Shown piece after piece: positions 17,940 to 49,233 of a DNA stretch of 64,000 nucleotides; the stretch's first letter is position 1, and every line of letters starts with the position of its first letter. The notes beneath the pieces were generated by a model. It was not told where the DNA came from. It was given only the letters and a program-made list of their open reading frames with translations, and did no database searches. Source of the DNA: Anaerolineae bacterium. Its GTDB lineage: Bacteria; Chloroflexota; Anaerolineae; S140-20. A program made the position numbers and the translations under genes. The stretch is taken from the NCBI GenBank assembly GCA_027021705.1, contig JALUTT010000077.1:1-64000 (forward strand), given 5' to 3'.

Positions 17940-18023
17940 GGTTGTCTCCTCCGAAGCACTAAGGGTCAGCAGCTAGCGGGAGCAAATGGGCGAAGCGACA
18001 AGACGAAGCTCAATAAGCCTGCA

Positions 18024-21833: not shown

Positions 21834-22397
21834 CTACATCCTCTCGTGCAAGAGTGCGAGCAGCTTGTGCAGGCAACGGGCGGCGCTTCGATTGCCCTGC
21901 GCTGCCCGCTCCAAGGAGAAGTGGGGGGCAATCCGACGGGCCATCTCAACTTCTGTGGGGAACTTCCCAATCCTGCGCTGGAAGAGACGCTTGAGCTGGG
22001 CCTTGGCATCTCTGAGGGAATCTGTTGGGAGATGGCTAAACGTTGTCCCCGTTGCAACTTGAAGGGCCTGGCCATCGGCCAGAAACCAAGCTTCCAATTC
22101 TCGGACACACACGCAAACCAGTACATCGGGCTCTCGACGCAAGTTGGCCAGACGCCGGGCCGTAGCCGGGGCGCAGGGGTCTTGGTCTTGGTCCAGCAGG
22201 AAGAGCACGTAATGACACCCCTGTTGTCGCAAGAGGTCAAGATGCTTCTGAGCATCACGGATCAGCCGAGGTCGTCCTTGGGCCTGACGCACTTTCAACA
22301 CGAACCCCTTCTGACGCCACCAAGGGGCATTCTGCTTAAGGAAGATGAGGTCAGAGGTTCCCTCCACAACGATTCCCAATACTACCCGTGGGCTCAT
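21834..22397 (-). CDS. TOPRIM-fold protein (DUF4276/RloB-like), partner of the upstream ATPase
   Basis: VVEGTSD, LLDQD and RELEAWFLAD motifs; translationally coupled to the ATPase. Confidence 0.7.
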   Translation of the reverse strand: MSPRVVLGIVVEGTSDLIFLKQNAPWWRQKGFVLKVRQAQGRPRLIRDAQKHLDLLRQQGCHYVLFLLDQDQDPCAPATARRLANLRREPDVLVCVCVRELEAWFLADGQALQVATGTTFSHLPTDSLRDAKAQLKRLFQRRIGKFPTEVEMARRIAPHFSLERAAQGNRSAARCLHKLLALLHERM

Positions 22398-34008: not shown

Positions 34009-34082
34009 GGCCCGCTAGCTCAATTTGGCAGAGCAGGGGACTCTTAATCCCTTGGTTGCAGGTTCGAGTCCTGCGCGGGTCA
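34009..34082 (+). tRNA. tRNA-Lys (anticodon CTT); CCA not fully encoded
   Basis: Acceptor GGCCCGC/GCGGGTC, D arm TAGCTCAATTTGGCAGAGC, anticodon arm GGGGA-CTCTTAA-TCCCT, T arm GCAGG-TTCGAGT-CCTGC. Confidence 0.97.
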
Positions 34083-34085
34083 CCT
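34041..34085 (+). repeat. attL: 45-bp core (3' half of tRNA-Lys)
   Basis: CTCTTAATCCCTTGGTTGCAGGTTCGAGTCCTGCGCGGGTCACCT, identical to 46589-46633. Confidence 0.96.
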
Positions 34086-34117
34086 GTAAACGCACCCTAA
34101 CCCGAAAGGGGGTGCCT

Positions 34118-34366
34118 ATGCCCAGACGGGTAGCTACCCTGGTGGACTGGGCTTTTGCCCCTGACTGGCTCACCGTCGAGAAGGCCGCCGAACTAACCGG
34201 CTACACCGAGGACTTCATCCGCTGGCTGATCCAGGATGGGGGCGTAGAAGTGAAGCAACAAGGCGATACGTGGCTCATCGAGAAGGCCAGTCTGCGTGAG
34301 TACCGGGACGCACTGCTGGAAACGCTCCAGTTGCAGCGTGACCTGGGGCTTGAGTCCGATGACTGA
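34118..34366 (+). CDS. Excisionase-like HTH DNA-binding protein 1
   Basis: WLTVEKAAELTGYTEDFIRWLIQDG..WLIEKASL, typical of the HTH_17/Xis pattern; adjacent to attL. Confidence 0.78.
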   Translation: MPRRVATLVDWAFAPDWLTVEKAAELTGYTEDFIRWLIQDGGVEVKQQGDTWLIEKASLREYRDALLETLQLQRDLGLESDD

Positions 34367-34387
34367 GCCGGTGTAGCGCTGCACCCC

Positions 34388-34420
34388 AGGCCCCACCATC
34401 GGCAGGTGGGGCTTTGCTTT
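34388..34420 (+). terminator. Intrinsic terminator after xis-like gene 1
   Basis: AGGCCCCACC-7nt-GGTGGGGCTT followed by TGCTTT. Confidence 0.65.
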
Positions 34421-34506
34421 GTCTCGGAAAACGCTCCCCCCGGCCTTCCTGAAAGGGGGAGGACGGAGCGAAAAAAATTTTCCCCAGAAAAGTACCTATG
34501 GGTCCC

Positions 34507-34658
34507 CTGACTGGTGACACTGGTGACACTGGTGACACCGAGAAACTTAAGCGTAAATGTTTCCTTTATAAAGTGTCTTCTCCCAGGAGAAAGCCTGTCA
34601 CCAGTTGACACAAAAACTGGTGACAGGACTGGTGACACCGGTGACAAAACCGGTGACA
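34507..34658 (+). repeat. Left iteron/AT-rich block (origin-like); inverted copy of 45173-45313
   Basis: Three tandem CTGGTGACA, an AT-rich spacer, one inverted TGTCACC and four further GGTGACA; about 7 differences in ~141 bp from the reverse complement of the right block. Confidence 0.9.
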
Positions 34659-34705
34659 AGACCGGGAGGAGAGCCATCACCGGCCTTCACCCTTTGTACC
34701 CTGGA

Positions 34706-34741
34706 AAAGCCTTCAAAGTCTTCAAAGCCTTCAAAGCCTTC
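34706..34741 (+). repeat. Four tandem 9-mers AAAG(C/T)CTTC
   Basis: AAAGCCTTC AAAGTCTTC AAAGCCTTC AAAGCCTTC. Confidence 0.85.
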
Positions 34742-34758
34742 ACCGGCCGTTGGCTGCA

Positions 34759-34992
34759 ATGGGCAAAGACTTCGACCCGACCGAATGGATCACCACCAAA
34801 GAGGCTGCCGAGTTGACGGGGTACCACGTTGTCCATATCCGTCGGCTTGCGAAAGCTGGCCGTATCAGGGGGATAAAGCGTGGACGCGATTGGTGGGTAG
34901 AGCGCGAGAGTGTACAGGCTTACGTTGAGGAGATGGAGCGGTTGGGCTCCGCCAAGCATGATCCTCGGCGGGTAGGCGTCCGTCAGAGATGA
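34759..34992 (+). CDS. Excisionase-like HTH DNA-binding protein 2
   Basis: WITTKEAAELTGYHVVHIRRLAKAGRIRGIKRGRDWWVERESV. Confidence 0.8.
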   Translation: MGKDFDPTEWITTKEAAELTGYHVVHIRRLAKAGRIRGIKRGRDWWVERESVQAYVEEMERLGSAKHDPRRVGVRQR

Positions 34993-34993
34993 G

Positions 34994-35022
34994 TTGACAC
35001 CCTCTTTTTTTTGTGGTATACT
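34994..35022 (+). promoter_or_regulatory. Near-consensus sigma70 promoter driving the element's main operon
   Basis: TTGACA-17bp-TATACT with a TG extension. Confidence 0.8.
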
Positions 35023-35108
35023 GTGTTCGCACGGGAACGGTCCTATCCCGTTTCTTTTTCCGGCTAAGTTAGTTCTCCAGAGAACACACACCAGCGAGGG
35101 AAATAGCG

Positions 35109-35330
35109 ATGTACTTGGGATACTGGGCAGAAGAGGTTTACCCCCGCCCGCTGGAGGACGATGGGCTTTGTGGGGAATGCGGCCGGCGACCGGCATCCTG
35201 GGGTGATTGGTTGTGCCCTCGGTGCCGCCGGCGGCTGGAGGAATCCCTGGCCCCGGATGCCGACGATACCGTCCAGAATGCCCCTGAGAGGCCCCAGGAG
35301 GCCCCAGGAGCGGCTTTTTCGGCAGAATAG
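35109..35330 (+). CDS. Small Zn-finger-like hypothetical protein
   Basis: CGEC...CPRC; GAGGG RBS; first ORF after the promoter. Confidence 0.55.
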   Translation: MYLGYWAEEVYPRPLEDDGLCGECGRRPASWGDWLCPRCRRRLEESLAPDADDTVQNAPERPQEAPGAAFSAE

Positions 35331-35341
35331 GAGGGAGAACC

Positions 35342-35593
35342 TTGAGCGAAGTCCTTGAGGGGTGGATTACGGCAGCCGAGGCCGCAGCCTTGACCGGTTA
35401 TACTGTCCCTCATATCCGTCGCCTGGCCCGCCAGGGCCGGATTGAGGCCCAGAAGGTGGGCCGAGACTGGCTGATCGGCCGGGAGAGCCTGCTGGCCTAC
35501 AAGCGGCAGATGGAGGCCCTGGGCTCCCAGAAACACAACCCCTGGCGGGAGGACCTGGGGCGGCAAGGACGACGGAGGAAGGCCGATGACTAA
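35342..35593 (+). CDS. Excisionase-like HTH DNA-binding protein 3
   Basis: WITAAEAAALTGYTVPHIRRLARQGRIEAQKVGRDWLIGRESL; clear paralog of 34759-34992, including the MExLGSxKHxP tail. Confidence 0.82.
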   Translation: MSEVLEGWITAAEAAALTGYTVPHIRRLARQGRIEAQKVGRDWLIGRESLLAYKRQMEALGSQKHNPWREDLGRQGRRRKADD

Positions 35594-35984
35594 CTGGCAA
35601 CATCCCAGGAAGAAACTGATCTCGGCCGCTGCCGATGCTTATCAGCGGGGCTGGGGAAGCATCGGGGAGTTGGCCGAGAGCGCGGTCCGACGGCACTATA
35701 TGGGCAAGTCACCGGACCGTGCCCTCCGGCTTTTCGTCCGAGACCTGTACCGCGAGGTGGTCCGTCGAGGAGACCCAGAATTTCGGCAGATGGTTGAGAC
35801 CCTCCACGCCGAAGGTTGGGAGTATCTCCCGATGGACGGTGTGGGGATGCGAGGAATCTTTTTCCATCGCCCCACCGGTAACCAAGTGAACCGGATGGGT
35901 GGCCCCTTCGATTCGTTTGAGGAGGCCGTCAAGGCAACCTACTACAGCGCGACCAGAGAACTCTTGCAAGAGGGGAACCGATGA
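35586..35984 (+). CDS. Hypothetical protein
   Basis: Coupled start/stop overlaps with both neighbours; GGAGG RBS; protein-like composition. Confidence 0.6.
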   Translation: MTNWQHPRKKLISAAADAYQRGWGSIGELAESAVRRHYMGKSPDRALRLFVRDLYREVVRRGDPEFRQMVETLHAEGWEYLPMDGVGMRGIFFHRPTGNQVNRMGGPFDSFEEAVKATYYSATRELLQEGNR

Positions 35985-36250
35985 CCGATACCCAGATCAT
36001 CCGGCTCACCACCCCGCTCCCCTGTGGGGTGATGCGTGAGGGAAACCGATGTGGACGACCGGCCTATGTGGCTTCCGCTACGCCGGTGGCTATGTCCGAG
36101 GACCCGGAACCGGACAACGTTGTGGCCGATCTGGTGGCCCGGATGTACCGGGGGCACTGGCTCATCCTGCCGGTGTGTGTGCAGTGTGTGCGTGACCTGT
36201 CCGAACGCTACCAATTGGAGGTGTCCGATGAAGAAAGCGCGACGACTTGA
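35981..36250 (+). CDS. Hypothetical Cys-containing protein
   Basis: ATGA overlap; C-x7-C...CVQC pattern. Confidence 0.6.
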   Translation: MTDTQIIRLTTPLPCGVMREGNRCGRPAYVASATPVAMSEDPEPDNVVADLVARMYRGHWLILPVCVQCVRDLSERYQLEVSDEESATT

Positions 36251-36962
36251 GATCATCCCGCTGGTCCTGTGGCTGACCCTGGCCCTGGCAATGGTCGGCT
36301 CCCTGACGCACACCGCCTGGGCCTTCGCCACCCTGGAGGACGGGAACCTGACCGCCGGCTACATCCAGGCGGTGGCGGTGGACCTGGGCCTCTTCGCCCT
36401 GGCGTTCAGCATCCAGAAGCGCCGGCGGCAACGTCGCCCGACCTGGACCCTCTGGGCCGGAGTTGGGCTGTTCAGCGGAATCTCCGCCTACGCCAACCTG
36501 TTGCACGGGCTGGCGTTCCAGGGCCGCTTGCCCCTGTCAGGGTGGACGTGGCTGGCCTCCCTGCGCCCGTTCATCCTGTCGGGCGTCCTCCCCCTGCTGG
36601 TGCTCTACCTCTCCGAGATCATCTCCTCCGACGTTCAGCACGCCGTCCAGCAGGCCGAGCGGGAGCGAAAGCGGGCCGAACGGCTGGCCGCCCGCCGGCC
36701 GTCAACTTCAGAGCAACCCAACGCCTTCCCCTACGACATCGAACAGGCCAGAACCCAAGCCCTGGAACGCCGGCGCCTTAGCAAGGACCAGGCTCTGGAA
36801 CGCCTCCTTGACTTCCTGGCCGACCACCCGGACGCAAGCCTCTCCGAAGCCGGGCGGCACATCGGACGAAGCAAGACCACCGTCTCCAACTACCTGAACG
36901 AACTGGAGGAGAGCGGGCGCATCCGGCGGAACGGCCAGGGAATCGAGGTGCTGGCGAGGTGA
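36228..36962 (+). CDS. Four-TM membrane protein with coiled coil and C-terminal HTH (DUF2637/Spd-like)
   Basis: GGAGG RBS; TM segments with SLTH, AVAVD, SAYANLLH and LPLL motifs; C-terminal SLSEAGRHIGRSKTTVSNYLNELEESGRI winged HTH. Confidence 0.75.
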   Translation: MKKARRLEIIPLVLWLTLALAMVGSLTHTAWAFATLEDGNLTAGYIQAVAVDLGLFALAFSIQKRRRQRRPTWTLWAGVGLFSGISAYANLLHGLAFQGRLPLSGWTWLASLRPFILSGVLPLLVLYLSEIISSDVQHAVQQAERERKRAERLAARRPSTSEQPNAFPYDIEQARTQALERRRLSKDQALERLLDFLADHPDASLSEAGRHIGRSKTTVSNYLNELEESGRIRRNGQGIEVLAR

Positions 36963-37127
36963 ACGGAGGTCCGGGGGCAGGTGTGCAAACGGGCGTTGGC
37001 CCACCTGCCGGGGAAAGGAAACCGCCGGCAGGTCTTGGACCCACCGGCGGAAGGGAGATGCCCGCGCGAGAACGCGGACACCCCAAGTATACAGGAAACG
37101 GTGCGAGTTGACAAGGGGAGGTGCCCA

Positions 37128-38717
37128 ATGAGGCGAGAACGAGGACTAGCCGTCACCGTCTTGCTCATCGCTGCGTTGGCCGTCTTCAGCGGATGGCAGC
37201 TTGCAGGGGGCATCCGCGACATCATCACCCGCGACGAACTCCGGGAGGCCGCCCGGCTGGAGAACGAACACCGCGCCCGGATGGAACCCTGGCGACGGGC
37301 GGGGAAGATAGCCGCAGGCGTCATCGGCCTGCTCACCCTGGCCGGTCTGGGGAGTGCCCTCATCGTCTACGCCCACCGACGGGCCGGGGAGATTCGGCCC
37401 GGCCCTGACGGCCAGTTTCCCATCATCCGGGTCCGAGTGGGCGGCGCTACGGTCCTACACGACCCCAACCGGCAGTTGGCCCCCACCGTCGTCTACACCA
37501 CCCCCCGACTGGCCCAGAACGTGGTGGTGATGCCGGTACTTCCCCCCGGCCTGGAGACCGAGCAGGTGGCCACCACCGCCCGCGCCCAGGCCGTCCAACT
37601 GGCCTCGGCGGTCAACAAACATCGGCCGGTGCTGACCGATGGTGGCGCACCGACGCACCCCCAACCCCTGGAGGACCGCCGGCAGGCCCTGGAGGACGCC
37701 CTGGCCCCCCTCTGGCCTACCCGGGTGCCCCTCACCGGCCTACTCAACGGGAGCCCCGTCAGCCTGGAGCGGCTGGTGTTGGGGGTGACCGTCCGCGAGG
37801 ACGGGCGGACAGAGGTTGTCCGGGGCGGGATGAGCAAGCTGGTCCACGTCGCCGTCGGCGGGAGCTCGGGTTGGGGCAAGTCCAACTTCCTCCGCGCCCT
37901 GGCCTACCAACTGGTCCTGGCCCAAGAGCGGCCCGACCTGGTGATGATTGACCTGGAGGGGGCAACCCTGGCCCCTTTCAGCCGGTCGGACCGGCTGCTC
38001 TACCCCCTGGCCGACACCGAGGACGACGCCCTGGCCGTGCTCCAGGCCGTCAACGAGGAACTGGACCGGCGCAAGGCCCTCTTCGGCCGGTATCCCGGCA
38101 CCGACAGCCTGGCGGCCTACAATGCCAGGGCCGAGGAGCCCCTGGCCCCCGTGATCACGGTCACCGATGAGGCGACGGCCTTGCTGGGCGACAAGCGGGT
38201 CGAGAAAGCGCTGAAGACCCTGGCCTTGAGGGGGCGCAAGTACGGCCTCTGGCTGGTCTTGGCGGGGCAGGACTGGAAGGCCAGCAGCCTCGATACCGCC
38301 ATCAGGAACCAGCTTGCGACGCGCGTCCAGTTTAAGGCCCTCAGCTCTTCCCAGAGCCGGGTGCTCTTGGGGCAGCCGGGGGCCGAGAAGCTGGAGGATG
38401 TGCCGGGGCGGGCCTTGGCCGTGCTGCCGGGCCGTGGCCTGGTCAAAATCCAGGCCCCCCACATCAGCCCGGCCGAGATTGAGCGGGCGCTGGCCGGTCA
38501 CGACACCGGAGCACGGCGGAACGTGCCGCGACCTGAGATGGACACCCGAGCCGAGACCATCCGGCAACTGGCGGCCCAGGGGTTGAGCCTGCGCGAGATT
38601 CAACGTCGGGTGTTCGGCTACGTGGGGGGAGCCGCTTACGATGAGGTCAAGCGGGTTCTGGAGGGCGGTACTGAAGGCGATACAGGCGGTATTACTGTAC
38701 CGTCTGGGGCCGTCTAG
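37128..38717 (+). CDS. Membrane-anchored FtsK/SpoIIIE (TraB-like) DNA translocase
   Basis: Two N-terminal TM helices; HVAVGGSSGWGKSN Walker A, MIDLE, ELDRRK, VTDE Walker B, RGRKYG arginine finger, LAGQ, GAEKL..PGRA; C-terminal HTH. Confidence 0.88.
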   Translation: MRRERGLAVTVLLIAALAVFSGWQLAGGIRDIITRDELREAARLENEHRARMEPWRRAGKIAAGVIGLLTLAGLGSALIVYAHRRAGEIRPGPDGQFPIIRVRVGGATVLHDPNRQLAPTVVYTTPRLAQNVVVMPVLPPGLETEQVATTARAQAVQLASAVNKHRPVLTDGGAPTHPQPLEDRRQALEDALAPLWPTRVPLTGLLNGSPVSLERLVLGVTVREDGRTEVVRGGMSKLVHVAVGGSSGWGKSNFLRALAYQLVLAQERPDLVMIDLEGATLAPFSRSDRLLYPLADTEDDALAVLQAVNEELDRRKALFGRYPGTDSLAAYNARAEEPLAPVITVTDEATALLGDKRVEKALKTLALRGRKYGLWLVLAGQDWKASSLDTAIRNQLATRVQFKALSSSQSRVLLGQPGAEKLEDVPGRALAVLPGRGLVKIQAPHISPAEIERALAGHDTGARRNVPRPEMDTRAETIRQLAAQGLSLREIQRRVFGYVGGAAYDEVKRVLEGGTEGDTGGITVPSGAV

Positions 38718-38801
38718 GGCGATACCCGGTACCGGTAATACCGCCGGTACTGTAATACCGCTTGTCCGGGGAGCGGATACACCGGATTCTGGACGGTGGC
38801 A

Positions 38802-38870
38802 ACGGTGACAAGTGACGGTGACAAGTGACGGTGACAAGTGACGGTGACCGGTGACACCTGTCACCGTCAC
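38802..38870 (+). repeat. Tandem 13-mer array ACGGTGACAAGTG (about 3.6 copies) plus GGTGACACCTGTCACC palindrome
   Basis: Read directly; contains the same GGTGACA core as the origin-like blocks. Confidence 0.88.
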
Positions 38871-38943
38871 CCGGCAGCTTATCAACCGCCTATGCGTCAA
38901 CTGCCTATGTGTTAACCACCGTCACCTGCGGAGGGAGGGGAAG

Positions 38944-39417
38944 ATGCTAAGCGAGGCGGACCTGGAACGATTCTTCCGGCGGATGTGGGAGGAGCAGCGT
39001 CGGGGGCGATACCTTCTCCCGGAGGACCCCAGGCGCACCCTCGCCCGCCGGGTTGAGCGGGCAGTCATCCAGAAGCTCATCGGGCGGGGGCACCGGGTGA
39101 GCAAGGCTGCCCCCAACGAGCACTGGGACCTCTGGGCCGACGGGATCAGGATTGAGGTCAAGGCGGCCACCTGGCACGGACGCTACCAGGCGAATCTGAG
39201 GGGGAACGACGCCGACGTGCTCATCCTCGGCTGCGTCAACGGGGATGTCCACTTCTTCGTCATCCCCTTCGACCGGCTGGAGGGCCGACGCCACGTTGCC
39301 ATCTGGTCGCCCGACCCGGCCCGCTACCTGGGCCGCTGGGCGCCCTTCTACGAAGCCTGGGAGTGGCTGGACGCCCTGGAGGTCCGCAATCCCTGGCAAC
39401 TCCCGCTGTTCCCCTAG
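38944..39417 (+). CDS. PD-(D/E)XK-fold nuclease-like protein
   Basis: E...WDLWADGIRIEVKAA matches the E-D-EXK active-site pattern; GGAGGG RBS. Confidence 0.65.
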   Translation: MLSEADLERFFRRMWEEQRRGRYLLPEDPRRTLARRVERAVIQKLIGRGHRVSKAAPNEHWDLWADGIRIEVKAATWHGRYQANLRGNDADVLILGCVNGDVHFFVIPFDRLEGRRHVAIWSPDPARYLGRWAPFYEAWEWLDALEVRNPWQLPLFP

Positions 39418-39469
39418 TTTCAATCCCCCATCAGGCGGGAGAGGGTTTGCGACTTGGAGGGATGAAGCT

Positions 39470-39730
39470 ATGCTGACAGAACAGGAACGAATCTTGGAGA
39501 CCCAGGAACAAGTCTTGGAGACCTTGGACCGACTTGCCTCCTTGGTTGAGCTTGCCAAGGAGGAAGCCGAGAGATATGACCCGTTCGGCCTTCTCGAAAC
39601 TCGGCTTCGGCAGATCGAGCAGACCGTTCAGACCGTGCGCGACTTGGCCGGGGTGGGCAAGAAGAGAACCCGACTTACGATCACCATCACCGACCGGCCG
39701 TGGCTGCCGGGGCTGCCCTGGCCGCTGTGA
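39470..39730 (+). CDS. Hypothetical coiled-coil protein
   Basis: GGAGG RBS; helical E/L/Q-rich sequence. Confidence 0.55.
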   Translation: MLTEQERILETQEQVLETLDRLASLVELAKEEAERYDPFGLLETRLRQIEQTVQTVRDLAGVGKKRTRLTITITDRPWLPGLPWPL

Positions 39731-39742
39731 GGGAGGGGCACG

Positions 39743-40009
39743 ATGACTACCCTGATCGCAGCGTACAACTCTGAGGGCTGCATTGGCCGTTGTGACGCCA
39801 AGTGCTACAACGCCACCGGCCCCGACTGCGAATGTATCTGCGGCGGCCTTAACCACGGCGCAGGGGTGGAAAAGGCGATGGAGAACACCCGCGAGCTGGC
39901 CGAGGAGTGGATGCGGCAGTGGCGCACGGAGCACCCGGACACGGAATACTTCCTGGTCCCGGCGGCGCAACTGTCCTTGTGGGGCCTTCTGGAGGAAGGG
40001 CGATGTTGA
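39743..40009 (+). CDS. Cys/His-rich hypothetical protein (probable metal binding)
   Basis: CDAKCYNATGPDCECICGGLNHG; GGAGG RBS. Confidence 0.7.
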   Translation: MTTLIAAYNSEGCIGRCDAKCYNATGPDCECICGGLNHGAGVEKAMENTRELAEEWMRQWRTEHPDTEYFLVPAAQLSLWGLLEEGRC

Positions 40010-40197
40010 GGCTTCTGATGATCGCGCTGGTGCTGGTGTTGTCGGCCTTCGTGCCCGGTACGACGGTGGTTGAGGGAACGATGAAGGGGACGGCCACCCT
40101 CGGCCTCGCCCGCCTGACCATCGGGCGGGCGACGGTCCGCGTCACCCTGCACCCCTACCGGCCCAACCGGGTGTACTACCGTCTGGCGGTGACGTAG
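40003..40197 (+). CDS. Small hypothetical protein with hydrophobic N-terminus
   Basis: GGAGG RBS; fills the operon gap exactly. Confidence 0.45.
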   Translation: MLRLLMIALVLVLSAFVPGTTVVEGTMKGTATLGLARLTIGRATVRVTLHPYRPNRVYYRLAVT

Positions 40198-40599
40198 ATG
40201 GACGACCGGGATCGGCTCTGGGCAGCCTGGAGAGAGGAACAGGCAAGGCGCTGGCGGGCCTTCGCCGATTCCCTGACGCCGGATCAGCGAGAACTGCTCC
40301 GACGCTATGAGGAAGCCTGTCGGCAGGTGGCCCGGTTGCGCCGGATGGAATCGGCCCGGAGGCGCGGGCGGCCTTACCGGGGGCAGCCGGTGCCCCGGCC
40401 TTGGACCGAAGTCGGGGGCATCGTCCGGTGGCACGACACCCGGTGGCGCGTCGCCCGGCGCTACCGGATGAGCGAGGTGGGCAGGCTGGAAGCCGAGGAC
40501 CGTTGGCTGGTGGACCTGGAGCCGTTGGAAGAGGGATGGGACCCCTACGTGGGGGTCCCCGAGTCTGAAATCGAGGAATGGAACGATGAAAGTAAGTGA
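40198..40599 (+). CDS. Hypothetical protein
   Basis: Abuts the upstream stop and overlaps the downstream start. Confidence 0.55.
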   Translation: MDDRDRLWAAWREEQARRWRAFADSLTPDQRELLRRYEEACRQVARLRRMESARRRGRPYRGQPVPRPWTEVGGIVRWHDTRWRVARRYRMSEVGRLEAEDRWLVDLEPLEEGWDPYVGVPESEIEEWNDESK

Positions 40600-40780
40600 C
40601 GATCTGGTGTTAGAAGCGTGGCGAGGAGAGCAGCCGTACTTTCTACTGCGCAGCCTGGGGCGGGAGGAAGGCGGACAGGGGGTGATCATCCTGCCCGACG
40701 AAATCCCCGCCCTGATTGAGGCGCTGACCGAGGTGGTGAACGATGAGCAACGACCTGGCGGTGACCCACAACGCGGCTGA
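40586..40780 (+). CDS. Small hypothetical protein
   Basis: GAGG RBS; protein-like composition; provides the RBS for the recombinase. Confidence 0.5.
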   Translation: MKVSDDLVLEAWRGEQPYFLLRSLGREEGGQGVIILPDEIPALIEALTEVVNDEQRPGGDPQRG

Positions 40781-41702
40781 GTTGCTGAGGCGAGAGGACC
40801 TGCTGGCAGCGTTCGCGGCGTTCCTCCGGCTCAACGTCGCCGAGGGTGACGCAAGCGCGGCCACGGTGCGGACCTACTGGAGCCAGGTACGCCAGTACGT
40901 GGCCTGGTGCCGGGAGCGGGGGCTGGACCCGGCCCTGGCCTCGGAGCACGACCTGCTGGAGTACCGCGCCTGGCTGGCCGAACGCTACACGCGGGCGACG
41001 GTGGCCACCAAACTCGCGGCGGTGCGCCGGCTCTACCAGGCCGCCGTCTGGCGGGGGATGAGGGCCGACAACCCCGCTGCCGGCCTGAAGGCCCCGAAGG
41101 AAAAGACGGCCAGGGAGGAGCGGGTGAAGTTTCTGCCGCTGGAGGGGCTCAAGCGGCTCCTCCAGGCCCCCCAGGGCGACGGGGCCAAGGGCCGGCGGGA
41201 TAGGGCGATGCTGGCCCTGATGGGCGTCCACGGCTTGCGTGTAAGCGAGGTGGCCGGGCTGGATGTGGACGACCTCGACCTCGACCAAGGTCGGGTCACG
41301 GTCACCGGCAAGGGCCGGAAGACGCGCACCGTCTACCTGACGGAGCAGACCGCGCAGGCCCTGGCCGCTTGGCTGGAGGCGCGGGATCGGGTGGCCGCCG
41401 AGGATGAGCCGGCCCTGTTCGTCAGCCTTCGCCATCCTGACCCGGGCACCCGGATGAGCGCGAGGTCAATCCGCTACCTGGTGGACGGCTACCTGGAGCG
41501 GCTGGGGCTCAAGGGGGAAGGGATAAGCTGCCACAGCCTGCGGCATAGTGCCGCGACCTGGGCGCGGGCCGGGGGCGCGGCCCTGGACGCCATTGCCGGG
41601 ATGCTGGGGCATTCGTCGGTGACGACGACGCAGGTCTACGCCCGGATCGTGGACCGGATGACCGAGAACCCGGCCCGCTACCTGGAGGCCCTGCTGGGAT
41701 AG
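40743..41702 (+). CDS. XerC/D-like tyrosine recombinase (probable resolvase)
   Basis: SAM-like N-terminal domain; catalytic set GLRVSE, GKG, HSLRH, LGH, TTQVY. Confidence 0.93.
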   Translation: MSNDLAVTHNAAELLRREDLLAAFAAFLRLNVAEGDASAATVRTYWSQVRQYVAWCRERGLDPALASEHDLLEYRAWLAERYTRATVATKLAAVRRLYQAAVWRGMRADNPAAGLKAPKEKTAREERVKFLPLEGLKRLLQAPQGDGAKGRRDRAMLALMGVHGLRVSEVAGLDVDDLDLDQGRVTVTGKGRKTRTVYLTEQTAQALAAWLEARDRVAAEDEPALFVSLRHPDPGTRMSARSIRYLVDGYLERLGLKGEGISCHSLRHSAATWARAGGAALDAIAGMLGHSSVTTTQVYARIVDRMTENPARYLEALLG

Positions 41703-41754
41703 GGGAGGGAGGCTTGCTCTCGCCCTCTCTCCCCTTCCCAGGGAAAGGGCCGGT

Positions 41755-41782
41755 GCTTCCTGTTATTGGGATTATCGGAAGC
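41755..41782 (-). promoter_or_regulatory. dif-like 11-6-11 tyrosine-recombinase site
   Basis: The minus strand reads GCTTCCGATAA-TCCCAA-TAACAGGAAGC, an imperfect inverted repeat 53 bp after the recombinase stop. Confidence 0.65.
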
Positions 41783-41859
41783 AACGCTGACAGTCGTATA
41801 CTGTATAATCCGCATTTTGTCAAGGGCACTTGTGTTTGAACTGCCTACAGCAGTCGTTC

Positions 41860-41904
41860 TTGACACCTACAGGGAGGAGTGTTATAATCCTGCGTGTATA
41901 ACAC
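41860..41904 (+). promoter_or_regulatory. Consensus sigma70 promoter of the replication operon with an overlapping operator-like inverted repeat
   Basis: TTGACA-17bp-TATAAT with a TG extension; the GTGTTATA-10bp-TATAACAC palindrome overlaps the -10 and start site. Confidence 0.8.
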
Positions 41905-41965
41905 AATGAGAGGGGACACTGGAGGAGGATGTGCCCACAGTGTCCCCTTTTGCTAGGAGGACACA

Positions 41966-42133
41966 ATGCGCAAACACTTCGTGGGGTTCCGCCTTGAGCC
42001 GCACCTGTATCACGCTTTGAAAACACAGGCGCGGCAGCGTGGCAACACCGTCTCTGAGGAGATTCGGCTGGCGATTCGGGAATACCTGAAGAAAAGGAGT
42101 AAAAAAACAAGGAGTAAACGATGGCTATCGTAA
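41966..42133 (+). CDS. CopG/Arc-like ribbon-helix-helix protein (55 aa; below the ORF-track cutoff)
   Basis: AGGAGG RBS; MRKHFVGFRLEPHLYHALKTQARQRGNTVSEEIRLAIREYL fits the beta-alpha-alpha pattern; overlaps the primase start. Confidence 0.8.
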   Translation: MRKHFVGFRLEPHLYHALKTQARQRGNTVSEEIRLAIREYLKKRSKKTRSKRWLS

Positions 42134-45100
42134 CCCGTAGGAACGAAAGAAGGCCCGCTACAGCGGGGGATGCTGGCGGGCCGGGCGGGAATAACCACCG
42201 AGTTGTTTCTGCCCCACATTATACCCCAAATTCCCCCAACGGTCAAGTACCGCGCGAGGTCCTTGACGCAATCAAGGACCGCGTGGACTTCCCCCGCCTG
42301 TTCGAGGAGGTCTTCGGGATCACCTTGCCCCGTTCCCCCAACGGACGGGGGTCGGTGAAGGTCCGCTGCCCCCGGCCCAATCACCTCGACCGGGACCCGA
42401 GCTGTACCGTCTACCACAACCGCGTCCACTGCTTCGGCTGTAACTGGCACGCCGATGTCATTAACCTGGTGAGGGAGCGGTACGGGGTGGGATTCCGGGA
42501 AGCCGTGCGTATCCTGGCGGCTCAGGTCGGGTATCCGCTCTCCTCCCTCACCCCTGAGCAGGTCCAAGCGATGCAGACACAGCGGGAATACGAGGACGGC
42601 TTGATCCGGGCGGCAGCGTTCTTCCACCAACACCTGCTGGAATCGGAGGCCGGGATGGAGTACGCCCGGAGCCGCTGGTCCGAGGAGGCGATCCGGGCGG
42701 AGTGGATCGGCTTTGCCGACGGCTCCCCTCTACCCGACCTGGGCAACGAACAGGCTCGGCAGGTGGCGGAGGCCGTCAACCGCTGGGCGGCCCGGGTCGG
42801 CGGGGCCGTTGTCTACGCCCACCGACGGGGCGGGCGCGTTGTCTACCTCTCGGCCCGGTCCATCCGGGAGAAAAAACACTACAACCCCCCCGGCCGCTTC
42901 GCCGGTCCGAAACAGCCCTACGTCAACTCCGTCTATTCCTCCCGGTCCGACGAGGTGATCATCGTCGAAGGGCAGGCGTGCGCCATCACGCTGGCCGGGT
43001 GGGGCTTTCCTGCCGTCGCCCTGGCGGGAAGCAGTCCGTCCGAGGACCTGGCCCGGCTGCTACGGGGGGAGCGGGATGTCTACGTCATCCCCGACGCCGA
43101 CGGAAGAACCGATGTCCAGGGCTTGGTGGAGGCCCTGGGGCCACAGATCATCGTGGTCACCCTGCCGGACGGGGTTGCCGACGTGAACGACTGGGCACGG
43201 AAGGACGGGACGGCGGAGGCGCTGAGGGACCGCCTGAACGAGGCCCCGGAGTGGCTGGAGCAGCAGATCACAGAGATCGCCGAGATGCCGAAGGGCCGCC
43301 GGCGGGATAGGGAGATGGAGAGGGTGTTCCGGTGGCTGAAACCCCTTCCCCCCCTCGACTGGGAACGCTACGGGGCGTTGGTGTGCGAGGACCTAAAACT
43401 CCTCTCACGACGGACGTTCAACAGGATGCTCAAGCAGACGGAGGCCGTCGAGATCGAGGGCAACCGCTACCTGGTCCGAGAGGGGAGGCTGTGCATCGAG
43501 CACCGGAAGGACGGGGGACGCTACGTTGAGCCTCTGTGCAACTTCGCGGCCAGGGTGACGACCGACATCACCTATGACGACGGGCAAGAAACCGTCCGCC
43601 GTTTCATCGTAGAGGGCCAACTGGAGGACGGGACCGCCCTTCCCCCCGCCCTAGTGGACGCGGGCAAATTCCCGGACATGAAGTGGATCACCGAGGCGTG
43701 GGGATCGAGGGCCATCGTTGCCGCCGGACACGGGAAGCGAGACCAACTACGGGAAGCGATCCAGCGGCTTAGCGGTGAGGTGGTCACCAAACGGGTGTAC
43801 ACACACCTCGGCTGGCGACAGATTGACGGGAAGCGGTGCTACCTGCACGCGGGCGGGGCGCTGGGACACGACGGCGTGGAAGTGGAACCGGCAAAGGAAC
43901 TGACCCGCTACCGGCTGCCCAACGAGCCTGACGACGTGCGCGGTGCGATGGAGGCCAGCCTACGGCTTCTGGAGATGGCCCCTCTCCGGCTCACCGTCCC
44001 CCTCTGGGCGTCGGTCTGGTTGGCCCCCGTGTCGGAGATCGTCCACCCGGACTTCGTGCTCTGGCTCTACGGTCGGACGGGGACCTTCAAGAGCAGTATG
44101 GCGGCCCTCTTCCTCTCCCACTACGGCGGGCCGTTCACGGCCAAGGACTTGCCGGGGTGGTGGTCCACGGCCAACGCGCTGGAGAAGCTATGCTATCTCA
44201 CCAAGGACGCACTGCTGGTCATTGACGACTTCGCCCCGAAGAGCAACCCCCGTGAGGCCAGGGAGCAGAGGGCGACGGTGAACCGGATCATCCGTGCCGT
44301 CGGCAATCGGGCCGGCCGGCAACGGCTCAACCGCAACCTGCGCCTGCGGAAGTCCTACCCCCCTCGCGGTCTGGTCATCTCAACGGGGGAGATGATCCCC
44401 GGCTTGCAGTCCGTTGTAGCCAGGCTGTACGTTGTCGAGGTGGGGCAAGGAGACGTGGACCGGGAGCGACTGAGCGCGGCCCAGGCGGAAGCCGAACGAT
44501 ACCCCCACGCGCTGGCCGGATACGTGCTCTGGCTCTCGGAGCAGTGGGACGAACTCAGGCAATCGCTTCCCCGGCAACTGAGGGAGATCCGCGATAGACT
44601 GGTGTCGGAGGTAGGGGGAGAACATATGCGCCTCCCCAATGCACTGGCTATGTTGTACCTGGGATTTGACCTGGGGTTGCAGTACGCAGTTGAGGTTGGG
44701 GCTCTGAGTGAGGAAGAGGCAAACGGGTGGCGCAATGCCGGATGGACTGCCCTTACCGCGTCGGCAGAAGCCCATAGCCGCCAGGTGGCAGCCGAGAGCC
44801 CCACCGGCCTCTACTTTGAGGCCCTGGAGGAGTTGCTGGCCCAGAGGAAGGTGAGGCTTAAGTCTGTACAGGGCGGTTCCATCGTGGGATCGGAAGAGGG
44901 GGAACACATCGGATGGTACGACGATGACCACATCTACCTGCTTCCCCGGGTCGCATACAAAGCGGTCAACGACCTTCTCCGGGGCACGGGGCGAGACTTT
45001 CCCCTCGACGAGCGAGCGCTGCGCAAGTACCTGGCGGAAGAGGGGTATTTGGAACGGCAGGGTGAGCGGTACACCGTCCTAAAGCGGACACCGGCGGGGC

Positions 45101-45168
45101 GCCGGCACGTGTTGAAAATACGCCGGGAGCGGGTGACACTGCTCCCGGAGGAGGGTTCTCCAGGGTAA
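42121..45168 (+). CDS. Primase-helicase replication protein (CHC2 Zn finger, TOPRIM, DUF927-like region, P-loop helicase)
   Basis: CPRPNH..DPSC..HCFGC Zn finger; IIVEG, PDAD and DVNDW TOPRIM motifs; GRTGTFKSS Walker A, STAN, LVIDDF Walker B, ISTGE. Confidence 0.9.
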   Translation: MAIVTRRNERRPATAGDAGGPGGNNHRVVSAPHYTPNSPNGQVPREVLDAIKDRVDFPRLFEEVFGITLPRSPNGRGSVKVRCPRPNHLDRDPSCTVYHNRVHCFGCNWHADVINLVRERYGVGFREAVRILAAQVGYPLSSLTPEQVQAMQTQREYEDGLIRAAAFFHQHLLESEAGMEYARSRWSEEAIRAEWIGFADGSPLPDLGNEQARQVAEAVNRWAARVGGAVVYAHRRGGRVVYLSARSIREKKHYNPPGRFAGPKQPYVNSVYSSRSDEVIIVEGQACAITLAGWGFPAVALAGSSPSEDLARLLRGERDVYVIPDADGRTDVQGLVEALGPQIIVVTLPDGVADVNDWARKDGTAEALRDRLNEAPEWLEQQITEIAEMPKGRRRDREMERVFRWLKPLPPLDWERYGALVCEDLKLLSRRTFNRMLKQTEAVEIEGNRYLVREGRLCIEHRKDGGRYVEPLCNFAARVTTDITYDDGQETVRRFIVEGQLEDGTALPPALVDAGKFPDMKWITEAWGSRAIVAAGHGKRDQLREAIQRLSGEVVTKRVYTHLGWRQIDGKRCYLHAGGALGHDGVEVEPAKELTRYRLPNEPDDVRGAMEASLRLLEMAPLRLTVPLWASVWLAPVSEIVHPDFVLWLYGRTGTFKSSMAALFLSHYGGPFTAKDLPGWWSTANALEKLCYLTKDALLVIDDFAPKSNPREAREQRATVNRIIRAVGNRAGRQRLNRNLRLRKSYPPRGLVISTGEMIPGLQSVVARLYVVEVGQGDVDRERLSAAQAEAERYPHALAGYVLWLSEQWDELRQSLPRQLREIRDRLVSEVGGEHMRLPNALAMLYLGFDLGLQYAVEVGALSEEEANGWRNAGWTALTASAEAHSRQVAAESPTGLYFEALEELLAQRKVRLKSVQGGSIVGSEEGEHIGWYDDDHIYLLPRVAYKAVNDLLRGTGRDFPLDERALRKYLAEEGYLERQGERYTVLKRTPAGRRHVLKIRRERVTLLPEEGSPG

Positions 45169-45172
45169 AGGC

Positions 45173-45313
45173 TGTCACCAGTGTCACCAGTTTTGTCACC
45201 AGTTTTTATGTCAACTGGTGACAGGCTTTCTCCTGGGAGAAGACACTTTATACAAGGAAACACTTACGCTTAAGTTCCTCGGTGTCACCAGTGTCACCAG
45301 TGTCACCAGTCAG
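45173..45313 (-). repeat. Right iteron/AT-rich block (probable replication origin), immediately after the primase stop
   Basis: Three TGTCACCAG, one inverted CTGGTGACA, an AT-rich spacer and three tandem TGTCACCAG; reverse complement of 34507-34646. Confidence 0.9.
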
Positions 45314-45366
45314 AGATACAGGGTATCTTTTGGGAGAAAAATTTTTCCGCCTCTGGAGGGTAGACG

Positions 45367-45642
45367 ATGGGGTACCGGCTTATACTACCGTCTGTGCTCT
45401 CGGAAGTAGAGCGTCCGGCGCAAGGAGAACGGACCGAGCGCCCTTCCGCCCTTGTTCGGCCCCCCATCCCTGAGCCGGACTGGGAAGCGTTGGGCATCTG
45501 CTTTCCCCTGGACCTACGGGAGCTCCCTTGGGCGTGCGCAAGGCTGGAACAAGCCGGCTACGACGCCTGGGTTGAGGACGACGGATGGCAATTGGTCCTG
45601 CGATACCGCCTAAACACACAGACGAAGGGGGGTGAACGATGA
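45367..45642 (+). CDS. Hypothetical protein upstream of the integrase
   Basis: GGAGG RBS; ATGA overlap with the integrase. Confidence 0.6.
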   Translation: MGYRLILPSVLSEVERPAQGERTERPSALVRPPIPEPDWEALGICFPLDLRELPWACARLEQAGYDAWVEDDGWQLVLRYRLNTQTKGGER

Positions 45643-46595
45643 GACTTCTGGAGGCCGTTGATGCATTCTTGACCGCGACCAGGGCCGACGGTCGCAGCCC
45701 CAAGACGGTGGACAGCTACCGGCGGAAGCTGAAACCCCTGACGGACTTCCTGGGCGACGTGCCGGTCGAGGCGATCACCGCCGACGATCTACGGAAGTAC
45801 ATTACCGACCTGATGGATCGGCGGACCAGGTGGCGTGAGCACCCGAAGCACCGGGAACGGGAGGGTGGGCTTTCGCCCTTCACCGTCGCCGGTCACGTTC
45901 GGGCTCTCAAGCGGCTGTTCAACTGGCTGGAAGGCGAGGGGGTGATCACGAACAATCCCGCCCGCCGTATCAAGACACACCAGCCGAAACAGCGGACGTT
46001 GAAGGCGGTCTCCGTCGAGGACTTCCTGGCACTGCTGGCCACCACCCAGGGGGAAGGGGTGTCGGACCTACGGGATCGTGCTATCATCCTCTTCCTGGCC
46101 GATACGGGATGTCGAATCGGGGGGCTGTGTGGGCTGAGGCTGGACGACCTGGACCTGGAGGAAGAGGTTGCCTTCGTCACGGAGAAGGGGGGGAAGACGC
46201 GCCCGGTGCCCTTTACCACGGTGACGGCAGAGGCGTTGAGGGCCTGGCTGGCCGTGAGGCCCGACGCCGGCGAGTACGTCTTCGTCAGCCTGGGCAACAA
46301 GGCAGTCGGGCGTCTCACACCCAACGGGGTGCGGCAGATGCTGAGGCGACGGGCGAAGCAGGCCGGGATAACGCGGCCCGTCAACCCCCACGCCTTCCGG
46401 CATGCCTTTGCAAGGGAGTATCTGCTGAACGGTGGCGATCTGGCGACGCTTGCCGACCTGCTAGGGCACAGCAGCGTTGAGGTCACCCGGTTTTTCTACG
46501 CGAGGTTTCGGTACAAAGAGCTGAAGGAAAAGCACGACCGTCATAGTCCGGTAGCGCGATTAGTCGAGAAAGGAGGGCTCCGTGTCCGCTCTTAA
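45639..46595 (+). CDS. Tyrosine integrase of the tRNA-Lys element
   Basis: GRSPKTVDSY SAM-like domain; TGCRIG, EKGGK, HAFRH, LGHS and FFY catalytic motifs; ends inside attR. Confidence 0.93.
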   Translation: MRLLEAVDAFLTATRADGRSPKTVDSYRRKLKPLTDFLGDVPVEAITADDLRKYITDLMDRRTRWREHPKHREREGGLSPFTVAGHVRALKRLFNWLEGEGVITNNPARRIKTHQPKQRTLKAVSVEDFLALLATTQGEGVSDLRDRAIILFLADTGCRIGGLCGLRLDDLDLEEEVAFVTEKGGKTRPVPFTTVTAEALRAWLAVRPDAGEYVFVSLGNKAVGRLTPNGVRQMLRRRAKQAGITRPVNPHAFRHAFAREYLLNGGDLATLADLLGHSSVEVTRFFYARFRYKELKEKHDRHSPVARLVEKGGLRVRS

Positions 46596-46633
46596 TCCCT
46601 TGGTTGCAGGTTCGAGTCCTGCGCGGGTCACCT
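46589..46633 (+). repeat. attR: duplicated 3' half of tRNA-Lys
   Basis: 45/45 identity with 34041-34085. Confidence 0.96.
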
Positions 46634-49079: not shown

Positions 49080-49200
49080 ATATCATTCAGCCTACCCTCC
49101 CGCAGGTCACCGGTCGAGGACACTTTCAGCCCCGATGGGCTATTTGAAGCACGGTTTCGCGTCGGAAACGTGCCTAACCTGCGGGAGGGTGAACAGTTAC
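49080..49200 (+). mobile_element. MITE family B copy (121 bp)
   Basis: Near-identical to 19822-19943; flanks GGAAGAAA / GGAAGAGA (7/8 match). Confidence 0.88.
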
Positions 49201-49233
49201 GGAAGAGAAATCCAAGGCGCGGGAGGATCCGGC

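Follow-up and report, generated by a model that had tools for sequence, protein, structure and literature searches.

A putative integrative plasmid of Chloroflexota with the module logic of actinomycete integrative and conjugative elements and a predicted FtsK-type DNA motor

The 64-kb window analyzed here, that is, the whole 64,000-nt stretch of contig JALUTT010000077.1 of an Anaerolineae bacterium, harbors a 12.5-kb element inserted at a tRNA-Lys gene. Judging from its boundaries and genes, it is an intact, att-bounded, self-replicating integrative element, and we assign it as a putative integrative plasmid, a replicon able to form episomes. The family to which it is assigned is Chloroflexota-specific, has closed circular members and is related, by gene content, to the early/maintenance, non-structural half of temperate Chloroflexota siphoviruses. 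The element would work like an actinomycete integrative and conjugative element (AICE), but AICE or TraB membership fails on the host, the replicase type and specific similarity. Its FtsK-type membrane ATPase and a polytopic partner might work like the TraB and Spd proteins, as a septal or envelope pump for double-stranded DNA (dsDNA), a mechanism that leads by analogy and that we advance tentatively.

A repeat search revealed an exact 45-nt direct repeat at the two ends of the element (34041–34085 and 46589–46633, spacing 12,548), in agreement with the att-bounded element of about 12.6 kb proposed in an initial annotation of this DNA. ARAGORN found a sole tRNA in the window, tRNA-Lys(CTT) at 34009–34084 on the forward strand. 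The left repeat copy is the 3′ part of this tRNA, from the anticodon loop to one base beyond the 3′ end, so that the tRNA gene is left whole. The chance of a 45-mer repeating exactly within 64 kb is negligible, and the footprint is the classic one of a tyrosine-integrase element that restores the tRNA upon integration. The convincing genes all lie on the forward strand and are close-packed, often with overlapping stop and start codons, and the G+C content is somewhat lower at the element ends (58–61% vs about 65%). The PolA protein of the host (56985–59804) has its best named relatives, at 69–76% identity, only in Thermoflexia, Anaerolineae and metagenome-assembled genomes (MAGs) named “Chloroflexota bacterium”, which points to a Chloroflexota host, as initially supposed, and not to an actinomycete. 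The features of the element are listed below by position (aa, amino acids; HTH, helix-turn-helix; IR, inverted repeat; ORF, open reading frame; RHH, ribbon-helix-helix; TM, transmembrane).

34009–34084 (+), tRNA-Lys(CTT), the integration target, complete at attL (ARAGORN)
34041–34085 (unstranded), attL core, exact 45 nt (repeat search, 100%)
34118–34366 (+), Xis-like protein of the HTH_17/excisionase family, 82 aa (PF12728, 1.3e-7; TIGR01764 above cut-off)
34468–34660 (unstranded), left repeat array IR-L, eight GGTGACA units about a 60-nt AT-richer spacer, an inverted copy of IR-R
34750–34992 (+), HTH_17 protein 2, 80 aa (PF12728, 4e-11; homologues in relatives 45–64% identical)
34994–35022 (+), promoter-like TTGACA-17-TATACT, TG-extended, matching 11 of 12 consensus positions and preceding the long operon
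35109–35330 (+), small Cys-rich, zinc-ribbon-like ORF, 73 aa, presumably coding (weak DZR_2 match, 0.0075)
35342–35593 (+), HTH_17 protein 3, 83 aa (PF12728, 3.5e-11; homologues in relatives 46–72% identical)
35586–35984 (+), ORF of 132 aa with no family in Pfam, PHROGs or NCBIfam and no TM helix
35981–36250 (+), Cys-rich ORF of 89 aa (32%-identical copy on contig C124 of the same genome)
36228–36962 (+), polytopic membrane protein with 3–4 TM helices and a C-terminal winged helix (IclR/MarR-type), the putative ATPase partner
37128–38717 (+), FtsK/SpoIIIE-type ATPase with two N-terminal TM helices, motor and C-terminal three-helix HTH (PF01580, 8e-12; phrog_1358, 2e-40); its longest ORF begins at 36981
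38682–38765 (unstranded), 21-nt inverted repeat over the ATPase stop codon (repeat search)
38794–38888 (unstranded), middle repeat array, ACGGTGACAAGTG in 3–4 copies plus one inverted unit (repeat search)
38941–39417 (+), PD-(D/E)xK-fold nuclease-like protein, 158 aa (atlas structure match to a PDDEXK_5 cluster, TM-score 0.67)
39470–39730 (+), small putative ORF of 86 aa, helical or coiled-coil by eye, no family
39743–40009 (+), Cys-rich ORF of 88 aa with no family in Pfam or NCBIfam
40003–40197 (+), small ORF with one TM or signal-like helix (TM prediction)
40198–40599 (+), ORF of 133 aa with no family in Pfam, PHROGs or NCBIfam
40586–40780 (+), ORF of 64 aa overlapping both neighbors, which suggests translational coupling (sequence reading)
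40743–41702 (+), second tyrosine recombinase, Xer-like, termed Rec2 (PF00589, 1e-34; XerC/XerD models matched below their cut-offs)
41860–41904 (+), consensus promoter TTGACA-17-TATAAT (41860–41888) with an 8-nt inverted repeat over the -10 box, preceding the RHH–replicase operon
41966–42133 (+), RHH (CopG/Arc-type) protein, 55 aa (PF01402, 7.6e-6)
42121–45168 (+), replicase of 1015 aa, a CHC2 zinc finger and DnaG-type primase followed by a DUF927 helicase-like part (PF01807, PF06048, TIGR01391; PDB primases 2au3 and 1d0q)
45160–45350 (unstranded), right repeat array IR-R, both orientations about an AT-richer spacer, directly 3′ of the replicase stop codon
45367–45642 (+), ORF of 91 aa overlapping the int start codon, no family (family and TM scans)
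45639–46595 (+), tyrosine integrase, catalytic residues kept (PF00589, 2e-33)
46589–46633 (unstranded), attR core, exact 45 nt (repeat search)

Pfam, PHROGs and NCBIfam agree on the modules named in the initial annotation, namely int, an xis-like gene, an RHH protein, a primase-helicase and an FtsK ATPase with a TM–HTH partner. The catalytic motifs of the integrase, second recombinase, ATPase and replicase are kept, and both recombinases retain the H-x-x-R ... H ... Y signature. The same three collections gave no match to capsid, terminase, portal, tail, relaxase or type IV secretion system (T4SS) families in the 19 element ORFs, and the small ORFs carried no virion signature in these scans, so the earlier view that capsid, terminase, relaxase and T4SS genes are missing held for every family class it named. 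The sole terminase-family resemblance is weak and confined to an HTH or a P-loop, and two HTH_17 proteins resemble phrog_57 at the HTH level only (E values of 6e-6 and 7e-4). The largest ORF without a family is 158–188 aa long. The nuclease-like ORF has its nearest atlas clusters in Uroviricota and no Pfam match. PADLOC found no complete defense system in the element, with matches at the domain level only (mad1, mad8, SspH and DRT primase).

Related loci were pooled from IMG/VR (9) and from metagenomes (56); among the latter are the contig of the window itself and several loci already represented in the IMG/VR or MAG sets. Among 8000 metagenome candidates scored, 233 proteins belong to the ATPase family at E ≤ 0.001, and the best 120 of the 233 all have E ≤ 4e-96. 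Named members among the matches listed are all Chloroflexi or Anaerolineae, and the family, although large in metagenomes, is rare in species-representative genomes, with 10 loci from five MAGs, all Chloroflexota. When the element proteins were searched by tblastn against 77 loci (duplicates included), integrase-like sequences were recovered in 21, Rec2-like in 19, HTH_17 in 10–11, the partner in nine and the replicase type in five. At the DNA level, likeness to other loci is restricted to homologous genes at 65–82%, namely the ATPase gene, in about 30 loci, plus the integrase gene and short pieces of HTH genes.

Circular forms, whose lack would have told against the initial annotation, occur among these relatives. 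Locus L038 is a 12,562-nt contig with identical 123-nt ends, which gives a 12,439-bp circle. It encodes a tyrosine recombinase, an actin-like partition protein, a 4-TM protein, the ATPase, a PrimPol-D5 replicase followed by iterons, and a large serine recombinase, with no structural-gene match. The loci L040, L063 and L060 are 90–99% variants of one element, in which an int gene (64% identical to that of the window) lies within 70 nt of the 3′ half of tRNA-Met(CAT), a full tRNA being undetected. Past the att site follow xis (54% identical to the Xis-like protein of the window), two HTH_17 genes, an actin-like gene and the ATPase gene. This int–att–xis order reads as an excised attP junction, and the implied circle of about 14.5 kb matches the 14,585-nt contig behind L060. 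In a phylogenetic tree, the integrase of the window groups with those of L040 and L060 at 100/99 support. The tRNA-Lys core gave no blastn-short match in the relatives, the closest of which use tRNA-Met. Moreover, Pfam scans of ORFs of at least 100 aa detected no virion genes in eight loci (L040, L060, L052, L036, L038, L009, L065 and L085).

The search criteria for AICEs (Ghinet et al. 2011, PMC3218068) name, in the accessible text of that survey, an integrase, a replicase (RepSA, RepAM/DUF3631 or Prim-Pol) and an FtsK/SpoIIIE Tra protein, and that text places AICEs only in Actinomycetales. The element of the window has two of the three genes, the integrase at an att-bounded tRNA site and the PF01580 protein, and its replicase is of another type, whereas L038 has all three, with Prim-Pol and D5_N. 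As far as the available texts of PMC3218068 and PMC2440964 describe AICEs, the likeness extends to the 9–24-kb size class, integration at a tRNA gene, int and xis, an own replication module, and a single FtsK/SpoIIIE membrane protein that replaces the T4SS, with no relaxase; in addition, the Prim-Pol/D5 replicase of L038 is a type found in some AICEs. The element differs from AICEs in its Chloroflexota host, its DnaG-primase/DUF927 replicase and its two recombinases, and it lacks Nudix (Pif) and GntR (Kor/TraR) genes. Moreover, its ATPase resembles actinomycete plasmid translocases no more than it does other FtsK-family proteins, and the ATPase family is also present in tailed phages and beside partition genes. 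The hybrid AICE-like class outside Actinomycetota that had been suggested initially thus survives in its host and in the logic of its Int, replicase and FtsK modules, but its TraB-type transfer is conjectural.

The ATPase possesses a Walker A motif (GGSSGWGKS) and a Walker B motif (DEA), and matches PF01580 at 8.3e-12 (45.5 bits vs a cut-off of 24). Its AlphaFold model, built from 30 family members with a predicted local distance difference test score of 82.4, comprises the motor and a C-terminal three-helix bundle. Structural similarity search against the PDB using Foldseek placed FtsK motor domains at the top (E value of 1e-19), followed by EccC/EssC and then by TcpA of pCW3 (E value of 2e-16), and sequence searches of the PDB agree with this ranking. 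Among the best 50 of at least 500 fold matches, ATPases of the HerA and virion types rank far below or do not appear, and no virion packaging ATPase is found in this set. Against reference collections, the identity is 24–33%, over the motor only, and about equal for phage, plasmid and chromosomal FtsK-family proteins. The matched references comprise mycobacteriophages of ~110 kb, in which the genes are annotated as FtsK-like translocases, Bacillus phages, and actinomycete and Clostridium plasmids including tcpA (24.6% identity to TcpA). No match to the FtsK_alpha or FtsK_gamma domains was obtained for the ATPase, whereas a control FtsK from an Actinomadura plasmid did match. Altogether, sequence and model indicate a true FtsK-type dsDNA motor that would stand outside any TraB subgroup. 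The initial assignment of TraB-type transfer is not supported by this comparison, the ATPase being about equally like TraB plasmids, TcpA, chromosomal FtsK and mycobacteriophage proteins.

Every family member checked has one or two N-terminal TM helices, and many have a 3–4-TM protein directly upstream. Homologues of the winged-helix partner lie directly 5′ of the ATPase gene in L017, L065, L066 and L083, and a 4-TM protein without the winged helix takes its place in L038, L009 and L036. The nearest atlas clusters of the partner are a Chloroflexota cluster and a 520-member cluster, 53% of which is Uroviricota (structural TM-score 0.68). An apparent link to DUF2637/SpdB2 came from the atlas only (0.81–0.82) and was discarded; the window protein and five relatives had no such Pfam match at E ≤ 0.1. 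An apparent natural fusion of partner and ATPase in L065 was likewise rejected as an 853-aa over-extended frame.

According to the accessible text of Thoma et al. (2015, PMC4447253), TraB is membrane-anchored at its N-terminus and has a translocase domain and, at the C-terminus, a DNA-recognition domain, and its partner SpdB2 has four TM helices, binds dsDNA, is oligomeric and has homologues in actinophages; the two proteins of the Streptomyces plasmid pSVH1 pump plasmid dsDNA across septal cross-walls. The pair described here resembles TraB–SpdB2 in combining a 2-TM motor that ends in an HTH with a 3–4-TM winged-helix protein, both families being found in tailed phages. It differs in that no sequence relationship to SpdB2-type proteins is detectable, and in that the relatives do not conserve an array of 8-bp clt repeats next to the ATPase gene, clt being the direct 8-bp repeats beside traB that the C-terminal domain of TraB recognizes. 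Outside Actinomycetota, single ATPases of the FtsK/HerA superfamily that export DNA from mobile elements are represented by TdtA of ICETh1, involved in transjugation of Thermus thermophilus (PMC5365140, accessible text), and by TcpA of pCW3. However, TdtA works, by that account, with the competence system of the recipient, and TcpA with a full Tcp conjugation locus, and the element provides no such context.

The heptamer GGTGACA/TGTCACC occurs 24 times in the window on both strands, with 21 of the copies in three arrays within the element (34513–34652, n = 8; 38804–38859, n = 5; 45132–45301, n = 8). The 5.19-Mb assembly holds 432 copies, the element arrays being the only clusters of at least four within 200 bp, and no GGTGACA array was found in any other locus or contig. 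The iteron-like repeats noted initially are therefore real; absent from that account was a ~180-bp inverted repeat to which the two outer arrays belong (34468–34646 vs 45173–45350, 89% identical, with about six mismatches in a 150-nt core). Each copy is composed of three 9-bp units, an AT-richer spacer of ~60 nt, a perfect palindrome and more units, and in the circular form the two copies flank int–attP–xis. The first unit of IR-R starts at 45173, next to the replicase stop codon at 45168. Similarly, seven iterons ACCCTACA of L038 (10525–10712) lie 3′ of the PrimPol-D5 gene, which ends at 10529, and arrays follow the replicase in L065 (six units, 16651–16802) and L066 (seven units, 16564–16704). 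These three loci have other replicases and a different short motif, in both orientations about an AT-rich stretch, directly 3′ of the replicase gene; no long inverted duplicate was found in L038 or L040.

Because the arrays of the relatives hold the same position after the replicase, we read IR-R as the origin and GGTGACA as the iterons of the replicase. By this analogy, IR-R is probably the replication origin, IR-L and the middle array may be additional binding sets for the replicase, and the repeats appear to behave as replication iterons and not as clt. The arrangement, in which iterons surround an AT-richer stretch just past the replicase gene and further sets lie elsewhere, resembles the P4 ori/crr pair, and a similar analogy may be drawn to the SaPI (Staphylococcus aureus pathogenicity island) origin. 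The middle array of 13-nt repeats begins 77 nt past the ATPase stop codon, where the relatives have only a hairpin. Such an inverted repeat at the 3′ end of the ATPase gene is present in three divergent elements (window 38682–38765, L040 7394–7448, L018 10972–11025), with arms of 17–21 nt and a loop of 30–42 nt, the arms in L040 and L018 consisting of (ACT)n/(AGT)n repeats; a terminator and a cis site are both conceivable functions. The GGTGACA units point rightward in the left and middle arrays and leftward in the right array, and thus converge on the region of the second recombinase. For this region, a resolution module had been proposed, of which the second recombinase is confirmed, whereas the dif-like site is not: 41702–41966 contains just short inverted repeats and a promoter. 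Replication specifically of the type of P4 and the phage-inducible chromosomal islands (PICIs), also proposed initially, is not borne out by the primase-helicase, the nearest database matches of which, at 23–32% identity, are actinobacterial plasmid replicases and small unannotated contigs of phage collections.

Taken as a working model, Int and Xis would excise a 12,548-bp circle, in which the int and excisionase-type genes flank attP. The replicase would then bind the GGTGACA iterons, with IR-R serving as the origin and IR-L and the middle array as extra sets, and theta replication would start; the second recombinase would resolve multimers. The membrane ATPase would form a hexameric dsDNA pump and, together with its polytopic DNA-binding partner, could move element DNA via the septum or envelope between neighboring cells. 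Such a pump might serve septal segregation, spread, or both, and these roles are not separable, because in a filamentous host segregation past a septum that is closing differs little in mechanism from spread across one that has closed. On a broader scale, integrative plasmids and temperate tailed phages of filamentous Chloroflexota might share this two-protein septal DNA pump and spread naked dsDNA from cell to cell along or between filaments, a generalization that we regard as doubtful.

Several observations weigh against a TraB/Spd-like transfer pump. The ATPase bears no TraB-specific similarity, its 24–33% identity applying to any FtsK-family protein and to the motor only, and DUF2637, Nudix and GntR gave no Pfam match. 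No clt-like array is kept after the ATPase gene in the relatives, where repeats follow the replicase instead, and even the middle array of the window is missing from a variant in two sequencing runs of another study, X2 and X3 (joint 38756>38885). The family is rare, being detected at E ≤ 1e-60 in one of 400 other sampled genomes of the phylum. Furthermore, PHROGs scans, part of which took only ORFs of at least 170 aa, found virion-gene matches within 10 kb of the ATPase in eight of 15 loci (L017, L019, L020, L021, L008, L055, L067 and L023; L041 was omitted as a duplicate of L008), comprising terminase, portal, protease, capsid, tape-measure and tail-fiber genes. Six loci had no virion match (L018, L007, L013, L066, L075 and L083), and L050 had an amidase domain only; across the family, the ATPases are 42–64% identical to that of the window. 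The order in L019 is int, primase, methylase, actin-like partition gene, small ORF and ATPase, followed 1.5 kb on by terminase, portal, protease and HK97-type capsid, which indicates that the ATPase belongs to the phage and not to a neighboring island. In addition, of the 23 annotated loci, a set that includes the window, 13 have a partition gene of the actin-like or ParA type no more than 3 kb away from the ATPase gene, which fits maintenance over transfer. Given its occurrence in tailed prophages and beside partition genes, a single FtsK-like gene is here not diagnostic of conjugation.

The state of this copy gives no sign of activity either. Contig depth in the probable source run is 55–68 on the element vs 69–79 on the flanks, and the element is present at one copy per chromosome. 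No circle or empty-site joint occurs among the contig joints listed for the four runs, whose contigs break at every repeat, so that excision is unreadable there. The suggestion that the element may be active thus stands on the identical att copies and the kept catalytic motifs, but is not backed by the depth ratio, which shows no excess over the chromosome. Runs X2 and X3 contain a 95–99% variant at the same site, which lacks the middle array (38757–38884) and has segments of the ATPase gene replaced (37635–37828, 38099–38169 and 38312–38544); the distal replicase/IR-R region is uncovered at a likeness of at least 90%. Forty related genomes are without the element, but with their tRNA and right flank on different contigs and a nucleotide identity of at most 70% they reveal no empty attB.

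A rather unlikely alternative, and the one that fares best, is that the element serves maintenance only; the phage and partition-gene contexts lend real weight to it as well as to the satellite reading discussed below. The pump, the partition genes of the relatives and the Xer-like recombinase would form a stability module for septal DNA clearing and multimer resolution, in a plasmid that descends from a phage-plasmid minus its virion genes and has no transfer machinery. FtsK–XerCD–dif performs septal DNA pumping and dimer resolution for chromosomes, and the element shares with it an FtsK-fold motor (FtsK being the closest fold), a membrane anchor, a C-terminal HTH, a Xer-like recombinase in the operon and oriented short repeats. 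Such an assignment agrees with the actin-like (ALP) or ParA genes beside 13 of the 23 ATPase loci and with the tailed prophages that carry the ATPase family, yet the element of the window has no partition NTPase and is one of the 10 annotated loci without a nearby partition gene. A tyrosine recombinase lies within 4 kb 3′ of the ATPase in the window and in L009, L036, L046, L060, L062, L085, L018 and L020, but these downstream recombinases are not one orthologous group with Rec2: a proposed common clade was rejected, since the tree leaves Rec2 without a fixed position, and one downstream type groups with a phage integrase. The convergence of the GGTGACA units on the second-recombinase region resembles the polarity of FtsK-orienting polar sequences (KOPS), although three arrays are too few as proof of polarity and no resolution or dif-like site was found at 41702–41966. 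By contrast with chromosomal FtsK, moreover, the ATPase lacks alpha and gamma matches, is element-borne and is dispensable to the host. Against such a module speak also the FtsK of the host itself, encoded by an 809-aa open frame on C145, and the small size of the circle, since 12 kb would hardly call for a pump of its own.

We likewise consider it unlikely that the element is a phage satellite, which would retain from a siphovirus lineage the genes for integration, regulation and replication and would depend on a helper tailed phage for its capsids, as in P4 and PICIs. SaPIs and P4 contain int, an AlpA/excisionase-type HTH gene and a primase-helicase with iterons directly after the gene, and the element has the same set, its adjacent iteron origin being deduced from position. 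The ATPase, the TM/winged-helix protein and the replicase type are common to the tailed prophages L017, L020 and L021, the TM/winged-helix protein and the nuclease-like ORF have mostly Uroviricota clusters as their closest atlas neighbors, and 12.5 kb is about one third of the related phage genomes (36.7-kb and 41-kb contigs, L019 and L021). The assembly also contains a contig with terminase and portal genes, C159, but no helper was identified. The element and the other contigs of the genome have only a 47-nt match on C132 in common, no shared cos or pac site is evident, and the GGTGACA arrays are found nowhere else in the genome. Moreover, no small terminase, capsid-size, capsid-redirecting or helper-interference gene was recognized in the 19 ORFs, and the replicase is nearest to plasmid proteins and small unannotated contigs, not to P4 alpha or SaPI Rep. 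The partition genes and circles of the relatives in bulk metagenomes correspond to plasmid behavior. We know of no phage satellite that carries a membrane FtsK-type pump.

An inert prophage remnant that has lost its structural genes would account for the phage-related gene content and for a depth equal to that of the chromosome, but it is very improbable in view of the identical att copies, the long ORFs that are all open with catalytic motifs kept, the close-packed and translationally coupled genes, the complete circular relatives of the same size and the 95–99% variant that persists at the same site in other runs. The accessible text on IME1 of Dehalococcoides describes a Chloroflexota-restricted group, integrated and circular, of proposed budding or filamentous dsDNA viruses with a recombinase, a central membrane ATPase with small TM proteins after it, and a module that combines a resolvase with a primase-helicase (bioRxiv 10.64898/2026.09.15.751708). 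That the element is a similar non-tailed, membrane-extruding dsDNA virus, whose membrane ATPase would drive morphogenesis or packaging, is also very improbable on architectural grounds: phylum, integrated and episomal forms and the three-part layout of recombinase, central membrane ATPase and primase-helicase module agree with that description, but the ATPase is FtsK-type by Pfam and fold, not pI/Zot-like as described for IME1, only one of the six small ORFs downstream of it has a TM helix vs many small TM proteins in IME1, all members of which have five conserved TM-containing groups right behind the ATPase, the size is 12.5 kb vs 21–28 kb, and the same ATPase family is found in tailed phages, which need no such motor.

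We found no description of such elements in Chloroflexota in a literature search within whose reach AICEs were reported only for actinomycetes, and for Chloroflexota only the different IME1 family, most subscription journals lying outside that reach; the family thus appears to be undescribed. To our knowledge, FtsK-type conjugation of dsDNA is regarded as a specialty of mycelial actinomycetes. Here, a Chloroflexota family with AICE module logic has closed circular members and an intact integrated member, and its pump cassette is common to tailed phages of the phylum. Should the TraB/Spd-like pump of our favored reading move DNA between cells, it would represent a second, independent T4SS-free conjugation, again tied to filamentous growth. 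Were the pump indeed a septal one shared with the phages, it would be an independent counterpart of TraB/Spd in a second multicellular phylum and a virion-free route of spread for phages. A role of the pump in segregation would instead make it a novel type of stability module for plasmids and prophages. In both cases, there is a defined two-gene cassette and a defined repeat motif, and the rule “integrase + replicase + FtsK domain” alone cannot identify conjugative elements outside actinomycetes.

Elsewhere in the genome, contig C124 (L027 and L028) harbors a second, different mobile element, in which the FtsK-like gene is split into a TM part of 243 aa and a motor part of 424 aa. Directly upstream of this second FtsK-like gene lies the homologue of the Cys-rich 89-aa protein (E value of 3e-6), which a genome-wide search at the stricter E limit of 1e-5 did not recover. 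The same contig encodes a ParB-like protein, a DnaC-like loader, a RelE-type toxin-antitoxin pair, a helicase and a DnaG-type primase, and its first 13 kb has ORFs without a family of up to 786 aa. Contig C159 (L029; 5.7 kb) carries genes for a large terminase, a portal and head morphogenesis and is a tailed-phage fragment; PF05065 capsid had no match anywhere in the genome. The related tailed-phage contigs L020 (546–618) and L021 (5670–5741) each have a tRNA-Thr(CGT).

Outside the element, the window contains on the reverse strand a pair of genes (21834–23629) for an AAA_21/AAA_15 ATPase of 411 aa and a DUF4276 protein of 187 aa, which matches the PADLOC candidate defense system HEC-01 (A, 1.9e-62; B, 7.6e-18) and lies between SurE genes and a class A penicillin-binding protein gene. 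Three tandem paralogues of M42 glutamyl-aminopeptidase and then two of SurE, also on the reverse strand, occupy 15845–19535 and 20239–21833, respectively. The ~120-nt segment at 49082–49204 recurs in at least six copies of 96–98% identity on C19, C120, C22, C48, C93 and C2, and is probably a miniature inverted-repeat transposable element. Finally, a reverse-strand gene at 52271–55186 encodes a peptidase C25 (gingipain family) of 971 aa, with a G+C content of 73–76% vs about 66%.

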